64,000 nucleotides of DNA from positions 128,001 through 192,000 of IMG/VR virus record IMGVR_UViG_3300048672_000970. One strand, written 5' to 3'. The notes below the pieces were generated by a model that had not been told where the DNA came from, did no database searches, and saw only the letters and a program-made list of their open reading frames with translations. Position 1 is the stretch's first letter; the number at the start of each line of letters is the position of its first letter. This document shows positions 3,760-55,430 of this stretch, one piece after another. The translations under genes and the position numbers were made by a program. Origin of the DNA: a virus (taxonomy: Duplodnaviria > Caudoviricetes).

Positions 3760-4965
3760 TTATTTCCCCAATGCTCGAAGTGCATTCATTCCGGCTGTTG
3801 TCGCCATATCAACGGCTTGTCCGGCCAAATTAGAACCGACGTTTCCTAGCGATTTTGAAACAAGCCCGGCCACTTGCTGTCCACCTGGGATACTTTTCAA
3901 AACTTTGTTCAGTTGGTCAGATGTCACTTTTTGAACTACTCGACTGGCTGCACCAGTTATCAAATTAGTTAATGGAGATGAAGTAGAACCAAATGAACTG
4001 GAAGGCACTGAAATATCACCTGGGGCACCAGTTCCTGCACGGATGTTAGAAAAATTCCGCTCAGGAGTATTCATTTGGGTAATAGGCTCTAATCGCAAGA
4101 AATCATAATCGAACGACATATTAACTTCGGCCGGAGCAGATTCATCATGCCCTAATGAATTCATTCCGATGGAAGTAATTTTTGGATTGATGAAAGTAAA
4201 CGAGTTCATGCTAACGGCTTTTGAAAGATCCCCTGCTACCGGATTGACCATGAACTGATTGATTCTGATAAAATCAATCAGGCCACCCGTATCAGTATTT
4301 GTGAAACTTGAAGTTGATAGCGGGCCGATGCCAGCAGTAACCCCTTCGCCAAAAGTCATGCCGTTAGCTCGCTGATACGCTTTGCGCACTTCAGCGAAAC
4401 TTAAAAGGTCGTTAACACCTGTGCCAGACTTTGCCCGCATCACCGGAATATGTGTTAGTAACATCGCTCTGAGAAACATCATCACCTTTTGCCCAACATC
4501 ATCATGGAATTTGAGATTGACGGGCTGGTGAGTTATCTTCTTCAAAATTTTGGTGCGGAAGTTATACATGTTTACCTCTTGATATTCAAAATCAAATTGT
4601 GGCCTGTCGATACTTTGTACCATGAACATAAATTCGTTATTTGGGCTTTTGCTTTTAACGGATCTGAACGGGTCAAATTGTAAAGCACCGGAAGCTTTCG
4701 GGTCTTTCAGAACGATTTCAACTGAAAACAGAAACTTGAGTGCCGGCCGGTATTCAGTGTTATACGCCATCGCATAACTCGACGCATAGAAGTTCTGGTC
4801 GTTACTGATATCAGTAGTCGCAGATGAAATACCGCCTCCTGGCAATAGAGTTTCACCCCCACCTAAAAAGTCCCCTACGGCCGCGCCAAAAGCTTTAGCC
4901 GCTTGTTTTTCCAAATTAACGCCAGCGCCCCCTAAAACACCGGAAATTTCACTTTTGTATCCCAT
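3760..4965 (-). CDS. tail-tube-fold baseplate/tube-junction protein (gp48/gp54-like)
   Basis: VQSIDRPQFDFEYQEVNMYN...VNLKFHDD tube-fold motif; adjacent to the tail tube gene. Confidence 0.55.
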   Translation of the reverse strand: MGYKSEISGVLGGAGVNLEKQAAKAFGAAVGDFLGGGETLLPGGGISSATTDISNDQNFYASSYAMAYNTEYRPALKFLFSVEIVLKDPKASGALQFDPFRSVKSKSPNNEFMFMVQSIDRPQFDFEYQEVNMYNFRTKILKKITHQPVNLKFHDDVGQKVMMFLRAMLLTHIPVMRAKSGTGVNDLLSFAEVRKAYQRANGMTFGEGVTAGIGPLSTSSFTNTDTGGLIDFIRINQFMVNPVAGDLSKAVSMNSFTFINPKITSIGMNSLGHDESAPAEVNMSFDYDFLRLEPITQMNTPERNFSNIRAGTGAPGDISVPSSSFGSTSSPLTNLITGAASRVVQKVTSDQLNKVLKSIPGGQQVAGLVSKSLGNVGSNLAGQAVDMATTAGMNALRALGK

Positions 4966-4986
4966 TCGATACTTTCATTAAAACAG

Positions 4987-4993
4987 TATTTAC
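4987..4993 (-). promoter_or_regulatory. late promoter (GTAAATA)
   Basis: NTAAATA about 21 nt before ATG 4965. Confidence 0.6.
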
Positions 4994-5002
4994 TTCCCAA
5001 AG

Positions 5003-5027
5003 AAAAAGCCACCCGAAGGTGGCTTTC
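5003..5027 (-). terminator. intrinsic terminator of the tail tube gene
   Basis: On the minus strand AAAGCCACC-TTCG-GGTGGCTTTTT. Confidence 0.85.
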
Positions 5028-5045
5028 ATTTAGACTGAATCTAAA

Positions 5046-5642
5046 TTAGAGAGAGACACCACCACCCAACGACCCACCATACGAATCGGCGGATGCGATG
5101 GAATACGCATGGTCAATCGAAATCGTCAGATCCATGTTGATTGCGTCAGCAGAAGCGTACTCAAGGGTGTTGAACCGCGCGTTTTTAATCCAGCAGCCTT
5201 CATAAGCCCACGTTTCAAGAACGTTCTCGTCACCATCAAGCATTTCAACCTTCATGCCGAATTTATAATCTGAACCAGTGGCGGCAGTAGCCATCCAGCG
5301 GCCGTCAAGATTAACACCCACCAGACGCTGTTGAGTATCAAGCTGATTCTTAATCACAGTGGAAGCAAGACTACCAATGTCGTCTTCAACAATCATGTTG
5401 ACATCAGAGAAATCATGGTCGGTCATGATTTTCGCCACTGAGTTATACCGACGCTGCGTGAACGAATTGTAAGTTAAATCAGGGCGGTCAACTTGAATCG
5501 CATTCATCGACACATCCCGACTATTTGAGCCAGGAACTAGACGGCCAAGACCGATGAAAAGCACTCTATATTTATTCTTGTGCTTCGGATGCATGATGCC
5601 TGAGCCAACGCCAGGGATACCAATATTAGAAATGTTTGCCAT
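5046..5642 (-). CDS. tail tube protein (T4 gp19-like)
   Basis: KYRVLF...VDRPDL...VEDD...KVEMLDG...ETWAYEGCWI...LEYASADAINMDLTISID. Confidence 0.8.
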   Translation of the reverse strand: MANISNIGIPGVGSGIMHPKHKNKYRVLFIGLGRLVPGSNSRDVSMNAIQVDRPDLTYNSFTQRRYNSVAKIMTDHDFSDVNMIVEDDIGSLASTVIKNQLDTQQRLVGVNLDGRWMATAATGSDYKFGMKVEMLDGDENVLETWAYEGCWIKNARFNTLEYASADAINMDLTISIDHAYSIASADSYGGSLGGGVSL

Positions 5643-5665
5643 ATCCTACATTACCTATTTCTCAT

Positions 5666-5672
5666 TATTTAG
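5666..5672 (-). promoter_or_regulatory. late promoter (CTAAATA)
   Basis: NTAAATA 23 nt before the tail tube ATG. Confidence 0.6.
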
Positions 5673-5710
5673 AGAAGTGATGCGGGAATTTTCTTTTCTG
5701 TTTCACCAAG

Positions 5711-5717
5711 CTAAATA
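5711..5717 (+). promoter_or_regulatory. late promoter (CTAAATA), divergent partner
   Basis: NTAAATA upstream of ORF 5801. Confidence 0.5.
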
Positions 5718-5800
5718 ATCATGAGTTAACAACTCTGCAGGTTATTTTATAAAACGTTCACCGTTCCCCTGCTGCCACTTTTTATAGAAGGAGAAATAAA

Positions 5801-6244
5801 ATGGCTATTGAAACTATTGAAAAGCGTCCCGTTCCCGGCCTGAAGCACGTTTACCTGATTGATTGGTATGACACTGGCATCTTCAAGGAATTTGCTATCG
5901 TGAAGGAAGATGAAGATGGTACGCTGCGCGGCATTGACATTGACCAGATGCATCAGATTGATAAAGTCCGTCTGAAGAAGGTTATCACCAGCGTGCACGC
6001 GGACAAGTATCCGCTGTGGCAACTGATGGATCAAGTACGTCTACCGAACGGCATGAACATGCTTGACTTTTTCCACATCAACCACGTCAAGGTCAAGCGG
6101 CCGAAGGGCGCAGTTGTCTCCGGTTCCCTGTCAGGTATTTCTACCTCACTGGCAGATCCGCTGCTCGGCGCGAACTTTACGGACATTTCACACGCTTCGG
6201 CGCAAAATGCGAACGAAACGCCATCGAAGGGTGGACTGTGGTAA
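5801..6244 (+). CDS. conserved hypothetical phage protein
   Basis: 147-aa ORF with SD GAAGGAG. Confidence 0.75.
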   Translation: MAIETIEKRPVPGLKHVYLIDWYDTGIFKEFAIVKEDEDGTLRGIDIDQMHQIDKVRLKKVITSVHADKYPLWQLMDQVRLPNGMNMLDFFHINHVKVKRPKGAVVSGSLSGISTSLADPLLGANFTDISHASAQNANETPSKGGLW

Positions 6245-25513: not shown

Positions 25514-25544
25514 AAAAAGCCGGGCATTGCCCGGCTTTTTCTTT
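25514..25544 (+). terminator. intrinsic terminator
   Basis: AAAAAGCCGGGC-att-GCCCGGCTTTTT. Confidence 0.9.
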
Positions 25545-26220
25545 GGGTGTCCAAACGAGCTAAAACGGCCTAGGAGCGATTTGATAGTGGAAGGTGGGCA
25601 CAGGTAGCTTGACGGATGAAATCGGCTCTAAAGCCCGTTAACCGCGTCCTGGCTGCATGTTCTTATTTGCCACCTAAAGGAATTTACTGAATGGATGGAA
25701 AAGCCGGTAGGTCAGTCGGTTGTCGGTTGGTTCCGTTCAGAGAAAGGTTCGTAGCCGGTTCTTAGTTGGTTAGCTCAAGTTTCAGGTTGGCTTCCGGAAT
25801 TGATTTAACGGCTGTTAGCGCGTTCTTAAGCTGCATAGACTACCTAGGTAGCTCATTGAAAGAAAACGGCTCTAACGTCCGTTTAAGCCCCTTCCTAGTC
25901 AATTCCTTATTTGTCACCTAAAGCAATTTCTCAGAATTGGTTAGAAAAGCCGGTAGGTCAGTCAGTCAGGCAGTCAGTCAGTCAGTTCACTTGAGTTAGT
26001 TCACTTGAGTTAGTTCAGTTCAGATGTGTGCAAACAGATTGACTAAACGGACGTTAGAGCTTCTGATTAGGTAGATAGCTACCCATGTAGCCAGATGAAC
26101 AAAAATGGCTCTGAAGCCCGTTAAACGCGTTCTAGAGGTACTTCCTTATTTGTCACCTATAGGTATTTCTCAAAAGAAGTGAGGAAGGGGCTGGTAGGTC
26201 TGTTAGGTTGATTGGTTCAG

Positions 26221-26322
26221 AGAAAGACTCAGTTGACTGAATGCAGGGCTGGCTTGACTGCTTGTTAGAGCAGCAAACAGCGAATGTGGTCGGTCAACTG
26301 CTGAAGCCCGTTAGGGCTGAGG
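26221..26322 (+). ncRNA. candidate structured RNA/ssDNA module A1
   Basis: CAGTTGACTGA(26230-40) pairs with TCGGTCAACTG(26290-300), followed by CTGA-AGCCC-gtta-GGGCT-GAGG. Confidence 0.5.
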
Positions 26323-26542
26323 TTATGAGTACAGAAGTAGTTGACTAACGCGCTGTTAGACATCTGTTAAACGGGCCATAGCGCGATTAGAAAGGGTGGT
26401 AGCTACGTGGGTAGCCTAGCGGATGAAATCGGCTCTATGACCCGTTTAAGCCCCTTACAAGTCAATTCCTTATTTGTCACCTAAGGGTATTTTACAAATG
26501 AGTGGAGAAAAGCTGGGTAGGTGGCTTGGTTGGTTAGCTCAC

Positions 26543-26641
26543 AGAAAAGCTTAGTTGAGTAGTGGCTTGAGACAGCTTGCTGCCGGTAGGCTCAAGATGC
26601 GAAAGGACTACTCAACTACTGAAGCCCTGTAAGGGCTGAGG
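26543..26641 (+). ncRNA. candidate structured RNA/ssDNA module A2
   Basis: TAGTTGAGTAGT(26552-63) pairs with ACTACTCAACTA(26607-18), followed by CTGA-AGCCC-tgtaa-GGGCT-GAGG. Confidence 0.55.
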
Positions 26642-26684
26642 TTAGGTAATGAGATGGATTAGGTATTGGTTCAAAAAATGCTGA

Positions 26685-26691
26685 GTAAATA
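26685..26691 (+). promoter_or_regulatory. late promoter (GTAAATA)
   Basis: NTAAATA 15 nt before ATG 26707, inside a TGAGTA/TACTCA hairpin. Confidence 0.6.
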
Positions 26692-26706
26692 ACTACTCAT
26701 GAAGGA

Positions 26707-43296: not shown

Positions 43297-43881
43297 ATGC
43301 TCATCGAATTGTTTGAGCGCCTTGCTACCAATACGGCTTCAGCAGAAGATTGGGCAGCATTTGAAGTAGAGAAATGCCTAAGAGTTGTTTTTGATGCAGA
43401 TAATCTATCGCAAGGGATTATTTTTTATTTCAACACTTCAAAACACTTCACGCATTCTGGGCAGGTGGTATTTTTCCCATTAGTATCACCACTAATAGCT
43501 GTTCACGATGCAGACGCAGGATTTGGAAACATGCCGAAATTTTCAGCCGGAGCTATTTCGGGCATCATCCAATGCAGGGGAACGATGGATGAAATATGCA
43601 AGAACGAAATAGCTAAACTAGATAACCGAGATGAATCTACCCAACCTAACTATACCCGTCTCGCCAGTGAGTTAAAATCGTGTGAACAGTATGAAGAACT
43701 GGTTGAATCAATGTGCGCTAAAATCATTGCGTTTACCAGACAGCCACACGTTCCATTAACCCATGATGAATGGTTTGGCGGCGCGAGTATTGCCCACATC
43801 CGCACTCTCCTTCATAAATTTCTTTTCAGTGAATACTACCTGAGAAATCGGGTACAAAAGTTCCACACCAAATCATTGTGA
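43297..43881 (+). CDS. paralogue 6 (MLIELFER leader)
   Basis: SCEQYEELVESMC...EWFGGASIAHIRT. Confidence 0.7.
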   Translation: MLIELFERLATNTASAEDWAAFEVEKCLRVVFDADNLSQGIIFYFNTSKHFTHSGQVVFFPLVSPLIAVHDADAGFGNMPKFSAGAISGIIQCRGTMDEICKNEIAKLDNRDESTQPNYTRLASELKSCEQYEELVESMCAKIIAFTRQPHVPLTHDEWFGGASIAHIRTLLHKFLFSEYYLRNRVQKFHTKSL

Positions 43882-43912
43882 TACAATGAGCTTTCTTGTA
43901 TCTTTTTGAAAG
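43879..43912 (+). promoter_or_regulatory. extended -10 promoter/leader cassette, copy 1 of a 34-nt direct repeat
   Basis: TGATACAATGAGCTTTCTTGTATCTTTTTGAAAG; two mismatches to 44563-44596. Confidence 0.7.
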
Positions 43913-43919
43913 AGGTAAT

Positions 43920-44549
43920 ATGCACCAACGTAAATTAAATTTACTTGATATGGTTAAACTACCCTCAACCCCTTTTATTAAGCCGCCGTGGTATGATTCG
44001 CTGAAAGCGGTGAGCGCGCGAATTGAAGCCGCGCTGCCACCCCCATTAAAATATGATGCATGGGTTGAGTGCAATTGGTTCATCCCAATCAACGATAGGG
44101 ATGCATCTGTAACTGGATTTATAGTTTTATTTTTCCTTAACGTCTATCACCTCCCCGACGACCCGGCGACGAAGATCGCGGTGTATGACATGGATACTTT
44201 ATCGCGTCGGGTCATCAAATTGACTCCATTAGAAGCAGCGATAAACGCTATACAATTATCTACGCAGAAAATAGTAGATGATTGTATATCAGATGCGTCA
44301 AACTACAAAGAACGTGCTGAAGCCATTGAAAATGTAAAGAATGTTTTGCAAGAAAACGATGCATATAATGATGCCATTGACACTTACTTTCGTGAAATAC
44401 TTTATTTGTGTAGAGTTAATGACCTCCCGTATAACGTGATGTATGGAGATAAAAACATCGCGGACGTTAGAAAAGCATTCTTTTTCCATATGTTTGAAAC
44501 GTTCGCTGCAGATTTGGTTGATATTCATGGTCTTTACCAAGCAGCCTAA
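43920..44549 (+). CDS. untagged paralogue 7
   Basis: ATG 43920 after GAGG; ENDAYNDAIDTYF...VMYGDKNIADVRK. Confidence 0.75.
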   Translation: MHQRKLNLLDMVKLPSTPFIKPPWYDSLKAVSARIEAALPPPLKYDAWVECNWFIPINDRDASVTGFIVLFFLNVYHLPDDPATKIAVYDMDTLSRRVIKLTPLEAAINAIQLSTQKIVDDCISDASNYKERAEAIENVKNVLQENDAYNDAIDTYFREILYLCRVNDLPYNVMYGDKNIADVRKAFFFHMFETFAADLVDIHGLYQAA

Positions 44550-49442: not shown

Positions 49443-49480
49443 AATGGAGGTTGATAAATACTTGTCAACCTCCATTTTTC
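49443..49480 (+). promoter_or_regulatory. 12-bp hairpin with TAAATA in its loop, followed by a T-tract
   Basis: AATGGAGGTTGA-taaatacttg-TCAACCTCCATT-TTTC. Confidence 0.65.
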
Positions 49481-49483
49481 CAT

Positions 49484-51439
49484 TTGGCTCGAAACGAACA
49501 AATCAAGCGCGCAGGTACTGAATGTGAATATACACCTGAGCAAGTGCAAGAGTTGCGCAAGTGTATTACAGACCCTATCTATTTCATTACCAACTATGTC
49601 AAGGTATCACACCCCACTAAAGGGCTAGTACCTTTCGCCCTATACGAATACCAAGAGCGACTGATTAGGCATTTGCACTCAAGTAGATTCTCGATTCTAA
49701 ATCTACCTAGACAACAAGGTAAAACAATCACATCAGCCATTTATCTATTCTGGAAGTCACAGTTTACCAGTAATGGCACATTTCTCATCGCATCAAAAAA
49801 CGAATCTCACGCGAAAGAGATTGCAGCCAGAATTCGAGTCGCATATGAAAATTTACCAAATTGGCTGAAAGCGGGTGTCAAACTGTATAACATGCACATG
49901 ATGGAATTTGACAATGGTTCAAAAATTATCTGTGAAGCAACTACCGATAAAACCGGGCGCGGGCTTGCTATCACTTGTGTAAGTGGTGATACTGAAATCA
50001 CCACTCGGCCAAAAGACTGCCCAGAATATCTGCAAGCTGGAACTACCATTCAAATCTCGCAACTGGCGTTAGGTAACTTTCCAGATACAGACCAGCTAAA
50101 AATTGACATAGCTGAATTAGAAATTCTAACACCATCTGGTTTTGAATCTTTTGATGGCATCGTCATCACGCCTGACAAGCCGTTACTTGAAATACAATTC
50201 AATGATGGGTCACATCTGAAATGCACCCCTAATCATTTACTTTTAGTTGATGGTGTATTCAAATCGGCTGACCTGCTAACGCCCGAAGAAAATGTTAACG
50301 GATTATATGTAATCAGCATTACTCAACTACCTGGACTACATCCGGTCTACGATTTGATAAACGTTGCTGACCACCATACTTACAAAACAAATAACGTCTA
50401 TAGCCATAATTGCATCTATCTTGATGAGCTTGCATTCATCAGTAAAACCATTCAGCAAGAGATGTGGACTTCGTTACAACCGGCTATCTCGACTGGTGGG
50501 TCAATCATTATTTCTTCTACACCTAACGGAGATACCGACCTTTTCGCTAATCTGTGGCGTGGCGCTCCAGAAAATGATTTCATGCCATTTTCTACTCATT
50601 GGAGTGACCATCCAGATAGAGGGCCAGAGTATTATGATCTGATGCTCAAACAGCTCGGCCCGGTTAAAGTCCGTCAAGAAGTTGATTGCGAATTTCTATC
50701 ATCAGACGCATTGCTTATCAATTCAATCGCACTCAATAACATCCGTTCAGTAAAACCTACTTTCACTTCGTTAGGGTTCGATTTCTGGATTCCTGACAAT
50801 TCAGTGAAGGGTGAAGGGACGACTTACCTTATCACTCTCGACCCGTCTACCGGTTCATTACAAGATTCATCAGTTATTGAAGTATTTGAATTCCCTTCGT
50901 TGAATCAGGTGGCTGAACTACACCTAGATGATGTTAACATCCCTTTAATCTATTCTAAACTGAAATGGATTATCAAGTATTTTGCTGTCAATGGGGCAAA
51001 TGTGTTATGGACGTTTGAACGTAATGGAATTGGCGAAGCAGTTGGCGCATTACATTTCAATGACGAGAACTTTGAGTTCCCTGGCTCTGATAACGTCTCA
51101 ATCGTCTCAGATTTGGACAAGATTGGTTTATTCACTACCCCGGCTAAAAAAATTACGTTCTGTTTGCAATTGAAACAGTTGGTCGAACAAATGAACGGAT
51201 TGAACATCCGTTCAGATTATCTGTTGAAAGAACTGAAAAACTTTGTCGCTGCTGGTGGAACCTATAAAGGAAAATCTGGATATCATGATGATGCCGTGAT
51301 GGCAACTGTCCTGACGATGCGATTGCTAAAATATTTGGCAGAGTACGATGAAGCTGCATTCAACCAAGTGAACACTTACATTGATGAGGAAGCAAGTATT
51401 GACGATTCGGATGCGTGCGTTCCATTCATGATTAGTTAA
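49484..51439 (+). CDS. terL: terminase large subunit (T4 gp17-like), intein-containing; start uncertain (TTG 49451 or 49484)
   Basis: DPIYFI, LYEYQ, Walker A PRQQGKT, Walker B IYLDE, coupling SSTPNG, nuclease TLDPS and HDDAVMA. Confidence 0.95.
   Translation: MARNEQIKRAGTECEYTPEQVQELRKCITDPIYFITNYVKVSHPTKGLVPFALYEYQERLIRHLHSSRFSILNLPRQQGKTITSAIYLFWKSQFTSNGTFLIASKNESHAKEIAARIRVAYENLPNWLKAGVKLYNMHMMEFDNGSKIICEATTDKTGRGLAITCVSGDTEITTRPKDCPEYLQAGTTIQISQLALGNFPDTDQLKIDIAELEILTPSGFESFDGIVITPDKPLLEIQFNDGSHLKCTPNHLLLVDGVFKSADLLTPEENVNGLYVISITQLPGLHPVYDLINVADHHTYKTNNVYSHNCIYLDELAFISKTIQQEMWTSLQPAISTGGSIIISSTPNGDTDLFANLWRGAPENDFMPFSTHWSDHPDRGPEYYDLMLKQLGPVKVRQEVDCEFLSSDALLINSIALNNIRSVKPTFTSLGFDFWIPDNSVKGEGTTYLITLDPSTGSLQDSSVIEVFEFPSLNQVAELHLDDVNIPLIYSKLKWIIKYFAVNGANVLWTFERNGIGEAVGALHFNDENFEFPGSDNVSIVSDLDKIGLFTTPAKKITFCLQLKQLVEQMNGLNIRSDYLLKELKNFVAAGGTYKGKSGYHDDAVMATVLTMRLLKYLAEYDEAAFNQVNTYIDEEASIDDSDACVPFMIS
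49976..50410 (+). mobile_element. mini-intein (145 aa, no homing endonuclease) in TerL
   Basis: Begins CVSGDT; block B LKCTPNH; block F VYDLINV; ends NNVYSHN followed by Cys+1. Confidence 0.92.
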
Positions 51440-54529: not shown

Positions 54530-54544
54530 GTAGTGATTATACAT

Positions 54545-55430
54545 CAACCTTCTCTGAACCCACCAACCCAACCAGCCCCTTCCCTCACTTCTTTTGTGAA
54601 ATACCCATAGGTGACAAATAAGGAATTGACTAGGAAGGGGCTTAAACGGACGTTAGAGCTGTTTTTGTTCATCAGGGCAACACGGGTAGCTAACTGAGCT
54701 AACACCTGTTCTAAAGCCCGTTAAACGCAACCGAACCAACCGACTGACCTGCTGGCTTTTCTATCCATTCATAGAAACTGCTTTAGGTGACAAATAAGGA
54801 ACTACCTCTAGAACGTGGTTAACGGGCTTTACAGCCATTTTTCTCTTTCAGGCTACCCTGGTAGCCATCCGTTATCCAATTCGTCTTAGAGCCTGTTTTT
54901 AGCCATTACCTAACCCAACCCTCAGCCCTTACAGGGCTTCAGCAGCCAAGCAGTTCTTTCGCATCTTGAGCCTACCGGCCACAAGCTGACTCACGCCACT
55001 GCTTGACTGAGTTTTTCTGTGAGCTAACCAATCAAGCCACCCACTAAGCTCTTTCCGCTCAATTCTTCAGTTCATTTGAGAAATACCTATAGGTGACAAA
55101 TAAGAACATAGGTCTAAAACGCGTTTAACGGGCTTTAGAGCCGTTTTATCTCATCAGTCTACCTGGGTAGCCAACAGGTCTTCAAACGCGCTAACAGCCG
55201 TTAAATCAATCAAGAACTAATGAACAAGCAACCATTCAATGAACCTTTTTCTGAATGGAACCAACCGACTGACCTACCGGCTTTTCTAACCAATTCAGTG
55301 AAACTGCTTTAGGTGACAAATAAGGGAATGCCTCTAAAACGCGTTTAACGGCCCGCTACAGCCGATTTCATCCAACAGGCTACCTATGCCTACCCTCCAC
55401 CTACAAAACGCTCCTAGCGCGTTTTAGCTG
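54545..55430 (-). repeat. non-coding repeat cluster B: inverted homologue of cluster A, four units
   Basis: TAGGTGACAAATAAG at 54608, 54784, 55090 and 55310; 54608-54659 is the exact reverse complement of 25869-25920. Confidence 0.92.
54920..55018 (-). ncRNA. candidate structured RNA/ssDNA module B
   Basis: Minus strand: CAGTCAAGCAGT pairs with ACTGCTTGGCTG, followed by CTGA-AGCCC-tgtaa-GGGCT-GAGG. Confidence 0.55.

Follow-up and report, generated by a model that had tools for sequence, protein, structure and literature searches.

A covarying folded module in tandem intergenic arrays of a T4-like jumbo phage

Structured non-coding RNAs have been poorly charted in phages, and hardly at all in the jumbo phages of environmental bacteria. 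The closest architectural parallel to the repeats described here, as direct repeats of a small non-coding unit, is the NsiR1 array of heterocystous cyanobacteria. It comprises 12 tandem copies, each with its own promoter, of the sequence for a 60 nt RNA that has a known regulator and the transcripts of which have been demonstrated (PMC4030482). In T4, the origins oriF and oriG consist of a promoter and a downstream element that forms an R-loop, several such origins being found where transcription diverges (PMC3016281). The intergenic DNA of T4-type phages also harbours PeSL cassettes, which are short elements that flank ORFs and pair an early sigma-70 promoter with a terminator (PMC2839356, PMC4122927).

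The sequence studied here is from an uncultivated, T4-like freshwater jumbo phage. The window, meaning the whole 64,000 nt stretch that was analysed, corresponds to bases 128001-192000 of a 200,363 bp IMG/VR record, estimated by CheckV to be around 56% complete. The phage carries genes of T4-like kind for replication and recombination, encoding a gp32-type SSB, a RecA/UvsX-like protein and a DnaB-like helicase, as well as a large terminase and a 2738 aa virion protein; the closest cultured phages are Ralstonia phage RsoM2USA and Pseudomonas phage PA5oct, with terminase identities of approximately 38-41%. Terminase profiles match two blocks of the large terminase (window positions 49451-51439), residues 14-177 and 311-645, and the approximately 130 residues between them, which have no profile match, may be an inserted domain. 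Comparisons were made with a relative in a Logan assembly from one freshwater run, the proteins of which are 49-88% identical to those of the phage, and with two other IMG/VR contigs, L023 and the more distantly related L034.

Tandem arrays and their component parts

Five intergenic arrays were found, at approximately 52 kb (+), 61 kb (-), 122.8 kb (+), 154 kb (+) and 183 kb (-) of the genome, containing 17 units of between 176 and 349 bp. A unit is composed, in order, of an inverted-repeat hairpin, a box, a G/T-rich leader and a module, the last being present in only nine units, or about half. Entire arrays in which the unit types follow one and the same order recur at the five places, in both orientations, and the genes flanking them are unrelated to one another. 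Arrays 4 and 5 lie within the window (25.5-26.7 kb and 54.5-55.4 kb, respectively) and are here called arrays A and B. Their features, in window coordinates, are:

25556-26700, + strand: array A (genome array 4), four tandem units
~25560-25639, 25804-25883, 26043-26122 and 26367-26449 (unit 4), + strand: long inverted-repeat hairpins of array A
25661-25679, 25905-25923, 26144-26162 and 26468-26486, + strand: boxes of array A
26487-26541, + strand: an example of the G-rich, C-poor leader, between box and module
26685-26692, + strand: GTAAATAA, late-promoter-like motif, 15-24 nt before the start of the 2738 aa gene
54560-55420, - strand: array B (genome array 5), four units, the last of which ends before any module
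54605-54623 (last unit), 54781-54799, 55087-55105 and 55307-55325, - strand: boxes of array B

Array A is bounded on its upstream side by an intrinsic terminator, a canonical terminator-like hairpin with a T tract at 25514-25544, and at its other end by the late-promoter-like motif of the giant gene; this motif, being downstream of the final module, is context rather than part of the element. The last unit of array B (54530-54623, - strand) ends after the leader and runs into the 3' end of a convergent gene encoding 691 aa. A perfect TATAAT is present at this end of the array, at approximately 54537-54542 on the minus strand.

The box, YCTTATTTGYCACCTAWRG, is 19 bp long and occurs once per unit, around 60-75 nt upstream of the module where there is one. 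It is invariant in 16 of the 17 copies in the record, and exactly the same core is present in relatives whose proteins are 72-88% identical. A search of the whole record found it to be confined to the arrays, hence it is not a general promoter. In size and invariance it would suit a T7-type promoter (17-23 bp, read by a phage single-subunit RNA polymerase), and we take it to resemble CACTATAGG; as it contains a palindrome, its direction is ambiguous on its own. Pairing of the box with the leader motif GGTAGGT was rejected, since in a relative the box is kept but GGTAGGT is lost.

Each long hairpin ends exactly 23 nt before the box and has the apex GCTACC-N4-GGTAGC. RNAalifold returned no consensus fold for these sequences, and their arms fit the arm of the neighbouring unit as often as their own, with no own-partner specificity. 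On these two results a covarying RNA stem was rejected; the hairpins may instead be inverted copies of a 20 bp protein site. The 3' arm at 25869-25885 is complementary at 17 of 17 positions to the next unit's 5' arm at 26044-26060, a better match than that of either arm to its own partner.

The leaders contain 33% G and 12% C, giving a GC skew of +0.48 against +0.02 genome-wide. They often carry (GTCA)n or (GGTT)n microsatellites, for instance at 25955-25990; the leader in question (25955-26021) has (GTCA)n and three 14 nt tandem repeats (AGTTAGTTCACTTG), and in other arrays (GGTT)6 or (GTCA)9 is found at the equivalent position. A two-tetrad G-quadruplex motif was detected in only 7 of 22 units. 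No small ORF was conserved between copies of the units when these were read by eye, and CsrA-type GGA motifs were not clearly enriched, according to a rough hand estimate from base composition.

Structure and covariation of the module

The module is a non-coding sequence of around 100 bases. It is closed by a stem, P1, of 9-14 bp (11-12 bp in most copies), inside which a purine-rich internal loop separates P1 from P2 (CUUG/CAAG) and the P3 hairpin; a further hairpin, P4, directly abuts P1 and is followed by GAGGTTA, with no U tract. Two types of inner domain are distinguished by P3, which reads GCC-GNNA-GGC in type 1 and CUGCU/AGCAG in type 2, whilst that of a relative is CAGGC/GCCUG; the stem has thus been swapped for fully compensated alternatives between types and in the relative. 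Within each type, the sequence of the inner loop and P2-P3 is fixed. Three copies lie in the window:

26218-26322, + strand: module A1, type 2 inner domain; P1 arms 26230-26240 and 26290-26300, P4 within 26301-26322
26542-26641, + strand: module A2, type 1; P1 arms 26552-26563 and 26607-26618, P4 within 26619-26641
54920-55019, - strand: module B, type 1; P1 arms 55009-54998 and 54954-54943, P4 within 54942-54920

The preliminary description of this DNA had placed three copies here, each with the order AGAAA, closing stem, inner domain, CTGA, AGCCC/GGGCT hairpin and GAGG, and on re-reading the window the copies were found where stated, with exactly the stem arm sequences given. The stems of A2 and B do indeed differ by four two-sided swaps and one change from U-A to U-G, and A1 does have a third pair of arms that still pairs, with one U-G. 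Relative to dinucleotide shuffles, the fold z-scores of the three copies range from -3.2 to -4.9. The copy number had to be corrected, from three to nine: a search with a covariance model built from seven copies found nine matches in the 200 kb record (E-values of 1e-23 to 4e-5, far beyond chance) and three more in relatives. All nine are inside the five intergenic arrays, with none elsewhere in the record, and seven have a type 1 and two a type 2 inner domain. Nine is a lower bound for the genome, the record being about 56% complete.

The full set therefore comprises twelve copies from three related phages: nine from the record, two from the Logan relative, the contigs of which end inside arrays (short-read assemblies break off at the box) yet still yield these modules, and one from L023, which has a two-unit array. 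All twelve share one architecture. Ten, those of the record and L023, fold unaided into the same shape, and the two Logan modules were placed on it by the covariance model and by eye. As eleven of the twelve come from just two phages, they are not independent.

In a MAFFT alignment built blind to structure, two-sided changes were observed at 9 of the 12 pairs of P1 and 94% of cells pair, a level of covariation matched by none of 500 shuffles; sliding the partner columns reduced pairing to 22-47%. When all twelve copies were placed on the model alignment, which leans towards structure, two-sided changes were found at 22 of 30 pairs, with 93.5% of cells pairing compared with 77% after shuffling. 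The arms of P1 are also specific to one another: duplexes with the own partner have a mean energy of -14.7 kcal/mol, against -6.4 kcal/mol with the arms of other copies, and in 9 of 12 copies the own arm is the best-fitting partner. Amongst the five core type 1 copies, which are near-identical, the P1 arms differ at 0.27-0.30 per site, whereas the flanks and inner domain differ at 0.04-0.10 per site, the divergence of the arms being around three times that of the flanks. The covariation, own-partner fit and fast divergence of P1 therefore indicate a helix that is constrained only to pair, and is free or even driven to change. A fixed inner domain joined to a changing P1 is the pattern that would be expected of a clamp presenting a specific binding surface.

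The wobble pairs had been taken to fix the polarity of the module, with the G-rich strand as the one that folds, and this is supported by the enlarged set. Of the non-Watson-Crick cells in the twelve copies, 27 are G-U and 7 are A-C, favouring the G-rich strand; P1 duplexes are at least as stable in the forward as in the reverse orientation in 11 of 12 copies, and the fold of the whole module is more stable forward than reverse in eight of ten. The positive GC skew of the leaders points to the same strand. However, C-to-T mutation bias on an often unpaired strand could mimic or add to the asymmetry of the wobbles, and G-T is the most tolerated mismatch in DNA hairpins; hence we infer, rather than observe, that the folded molecule is RNA. 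Selection on pairing in a single-stranded form, as originally proposed, is upheld by the covariation of P1 and by the exchanges of P3 across types, and persists with more homologues aligned. That the module is a real folded RNA-like element is well supported.

Known families, relatives and neighbouring genes

The suggestion that the element is new is borne out by Rfam 15, which gave no match at gathering score across the whole window; for array A, with E-values of up to 5 allowed, only chance-level matches were returned, all of them outside the module. No Rfam ribozyme model matched the window or array A. The hammerhead core consists of CUGANGA and GAAA around a three-way junction, and inspection by eye showed it to be missing, as CUGA is followed by AGCCC and GAAA does not come after the hairpin. 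An intrinsic terminator is ruled out by the GAGGTTA, in place of a U tract, that follows P4; for the same reason no 3' end is defined, though the phage uses ordinary terminators elsewhere, such as that at 25514-25544. A Cas-less CRISPR array with a 28 nt repeat is present outside the window, at 43560-44165 of the genome, and the flanks of its repeat, CCTC and GGCTT, loosely resemble P4 in reverse, which we judge to be coincidence. An RNA anti-CRISPR role for P4, as a mimic of the CRISPR repeat, was rejected, since only these flanks are shared and the likeness is gone in the P4 of a relative.

Relatives proved to be few. Arrays 2, 3 and 5 are at matching genome positions in the Logan relative. 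The covariance model found no module in more distant relatives, in which the giant protein is 41-44% identical, and no array precedes the giant gene of RsoM2USA. Searching a phage collection with blastn gave zero matches; pattern scans of IMG/VR for the box and the P4 hairpin retrieved only L023, besides chance or coding matches, and a pattern scan of JGI metagenomes gave chance matches only.

Two types of promoter-like sequence could be recognised in the genome. Of 72 copies of the late-promoter-like TAAATA motif, 47 lie on the sense strand within the 100 nt that precede an ORF, where 4.2 are expected, most of them 10-29 nt before the start codon. The early-type promoters have the form AAAGTGTAACA, N4, TTGAC, N17, TAcAAT, with around 15 clear sites, the majority of them between 62 and 107 kb and so not in the window. 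A scan of array A revealed neither a sigma-70-type promoter nor a terminator-like site within the units. The gene starts abutting arrays 1-4 each have a TAAATA of their own, so the arrays look self-contained; furthermore, array 3, array 5 and the L023 array are oriented into genes that converge on them, at the 3' ends of these. Hence the arrays are not simply there as promoters or leaders for the adjacent genes. Transcription diverges at arrays 1 and 2.

The record contained no match to a T7-type RNA polymerase, sigma-70 region 2, an Rpb1 domain or a reverse transcriptase. The T7-type family, PF00940, also lacked matches in five related records, of which one is 97% complete, although control genomes likewise gave no signal, and comparison of the giant virion protein with PDB chains showed no polymerase likeness. 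Neither a transposase nor any other consistent neighbour was found in the array flanks.

Possible roles and comparison with known systems

The explanation to which we tentatively incline, judging from the sequence, is that the module forms the folded core of short non-coding transcripts made from the G-rich strand of self-contained units. The 19 bp box would be the start site of each unit for a phage-directed transcription machinery, and P1 would act as a clamp by which the conserved inner domain is presented to a partner that is most likely a protein. P4 may protect or define the 3' side, and the differing sequences of P1 could prevent neighbouring modules on one transcript from mispairing. 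Such RNAs would function as abundant, multi-copy small RNAs rather than as leaders of neighbouring genes. Against this stand the absence of a U tract after P4 and of a sigma-70-type promoter in the array scanned, and no polymerase or sigma factor that might read the box was found in the 56% complete record.

A clearly less probable alternative, drawn by analogy with oriF and oriG of T4, is that the module belongs to a cis-acting origin RNA, in which the G-rich transcript started at the box would remain paired with the C-rich template in an R-loop and then prime the leading strand. The folded module might set the end of the hybrid or recruit processing or loading factors, making the arrays multi-copy, direction-specific origins, or clamp-loading sites beside late genes. 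The GC skew of the leaders relative to that of the genome is in keeping with this, and their microsatellites and depletion of C fit a strand that is often unpaired; the phage has the T4-like replication and recombination genes, arrays 1 and 2 are situated at points of divergence as are several T4 origins (PMC3016281), and the arrays are not needed as gene promoters. However, the downstream element in T4 is A+T-rich and needs no folded RNA, the G-quadruplex motif is restricted to a minority of units, and seventeen origins per 200 kb would be many. It seems unlikely, though the same observations could accommodate it, that the arrays represent a new control element linking replication and transcription, in which self-starting G-rich R-loop transcripts, with the hybrid end fixed by the module, would make primer-template junctions serving as origins or as sliding-clamp loading sites that switch on adjacent T4-type late promoters.

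The covariation and polarity would fit DNA hairpins equally well, and GNA and GNNA loops are stable in DNA. The module might fold in a displaced or lagging strand as a single-stranded DNA signal read by a primase, helicase loader, nuclease or polymerase, much like the single-strand initiation sites of plasmids or the promoters that phage N4 forms as hairpins. Neither a promoter nor a terminator of any known kind is found on either side of the module, and the adjacent long hairpins, given that their arms lack own-partner specificity, behave at the DNA level, as inverted copies of a 20 bp motif. We nevertheless consider a DNA signal distinctly unlikely: nothing points to regular exposure of one strand here, the conserved purine-rich loop and the P2-P3 architecture are features more often seen at RNA-protein sites, and no N4-type polymerase signal was found in the giant virion protein.

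Less probable again is a cis-acting element in the leaders of late operons, such as an RNase III-type processing site, a stabilising hairpin or a put-like antitermination RNA, in mRNAs that would start at the boxes. Arrays 1, 2 and 4 do point into structural-gene blocks, which include a predicted structural gene (its role deduced from the N-terminus only), a tail lysin with PAAR and the giant virion protein, and a helix of approximately 20 bp would result if P1 stacked on P4. Yet array 3, array 5 and the L023 array face convergent genes from the 3' side, a TAAATA lies between the module and the start codon of the downstream genes, and half of the units lack a module. A REP- or MITE-like hairpin repeat, selfish or neutral, with stems kept by its own copying mechanism, would account for arrays of the same order at five places in both orientations, but is highly improbable, with the nine copies confined to the five arrays, three array positions shared with relatives at 49-88% protein identity, the box and inner domain under strong purifying selection, and no transposase or consistent neighbouring gene found.

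The module offers unusually clean evidence of selection on pairing, in a stem that changes faster than the sequence around it yet always pairs, and has no known relative. Should the units prove to be autonomous transcription units, the box would constitute a third class of promoter, in a T4-like phage without a recognisable factor to read it; if they are R-loop origins, they would provide a sequence-defined handle on the start of replication in large T4-like phages.

Amongst described systems, the template RNA arrays of retron-like and UG27 reverse transcriptases share with these arrays their tandem structured units, of approximately 170-200 nt, their covarying stems and their occurrence in jumbo phages. 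However, such arrays adjoin their reverse transcriptase, whereas there is no RVT_1 (PF00078) match in the 200 kb record (56% complete) and no neighbouring gene shared between arrays. PeSLs, too, are composite regulatory motifs that recur between the genes of T4-type phages and can move as cassettes, but here there is no sigma-70 promoter, no ORF lies between units and the structured content is much larger. Both therefore fail as identities on their defining features.

The similarity to the T4 origins would lie in a promoter-like box followed by a non-coding stretch, the transcript of which could stay hybridised, in a T4-like replication setting. The T4 origins are single, with an A+T-rich unwinding element and no conserved folded RNA, whereas the downstream stretch here is G-rich. 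With the NsiR1 array, in which each repeat has one promoter, the arrays have in common the direct repetition of a small non-coding unit, and every unit here has a box; they differ in the 176-349 bp length of the units, their distribution over five phage loci, the covarying 100 nt module and the lack of a recognisable terminator.

The distant relative L034 also has tandem non-coding units in several intergenic gaps and on both strands, including before its orthologue of the giant gene, in front of which there is a related box-like sequence, CTAATTTGACACCTT. It differs in having other microsatellites and an invariant box of its own, AACCCGCTATYYGTCGGCTA, in 27 copies, and the module model has no match there. 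The L034 arrays, at 4140-5960 and six more places in the 161 kb record, contain runs of GAAGAATCCATTG and GC-rich hairpins, and one is directly upstream of the giant-gene orthologue. The architecture of box, hairpin and G-rich leader recurs in distant relatives with other sequences.
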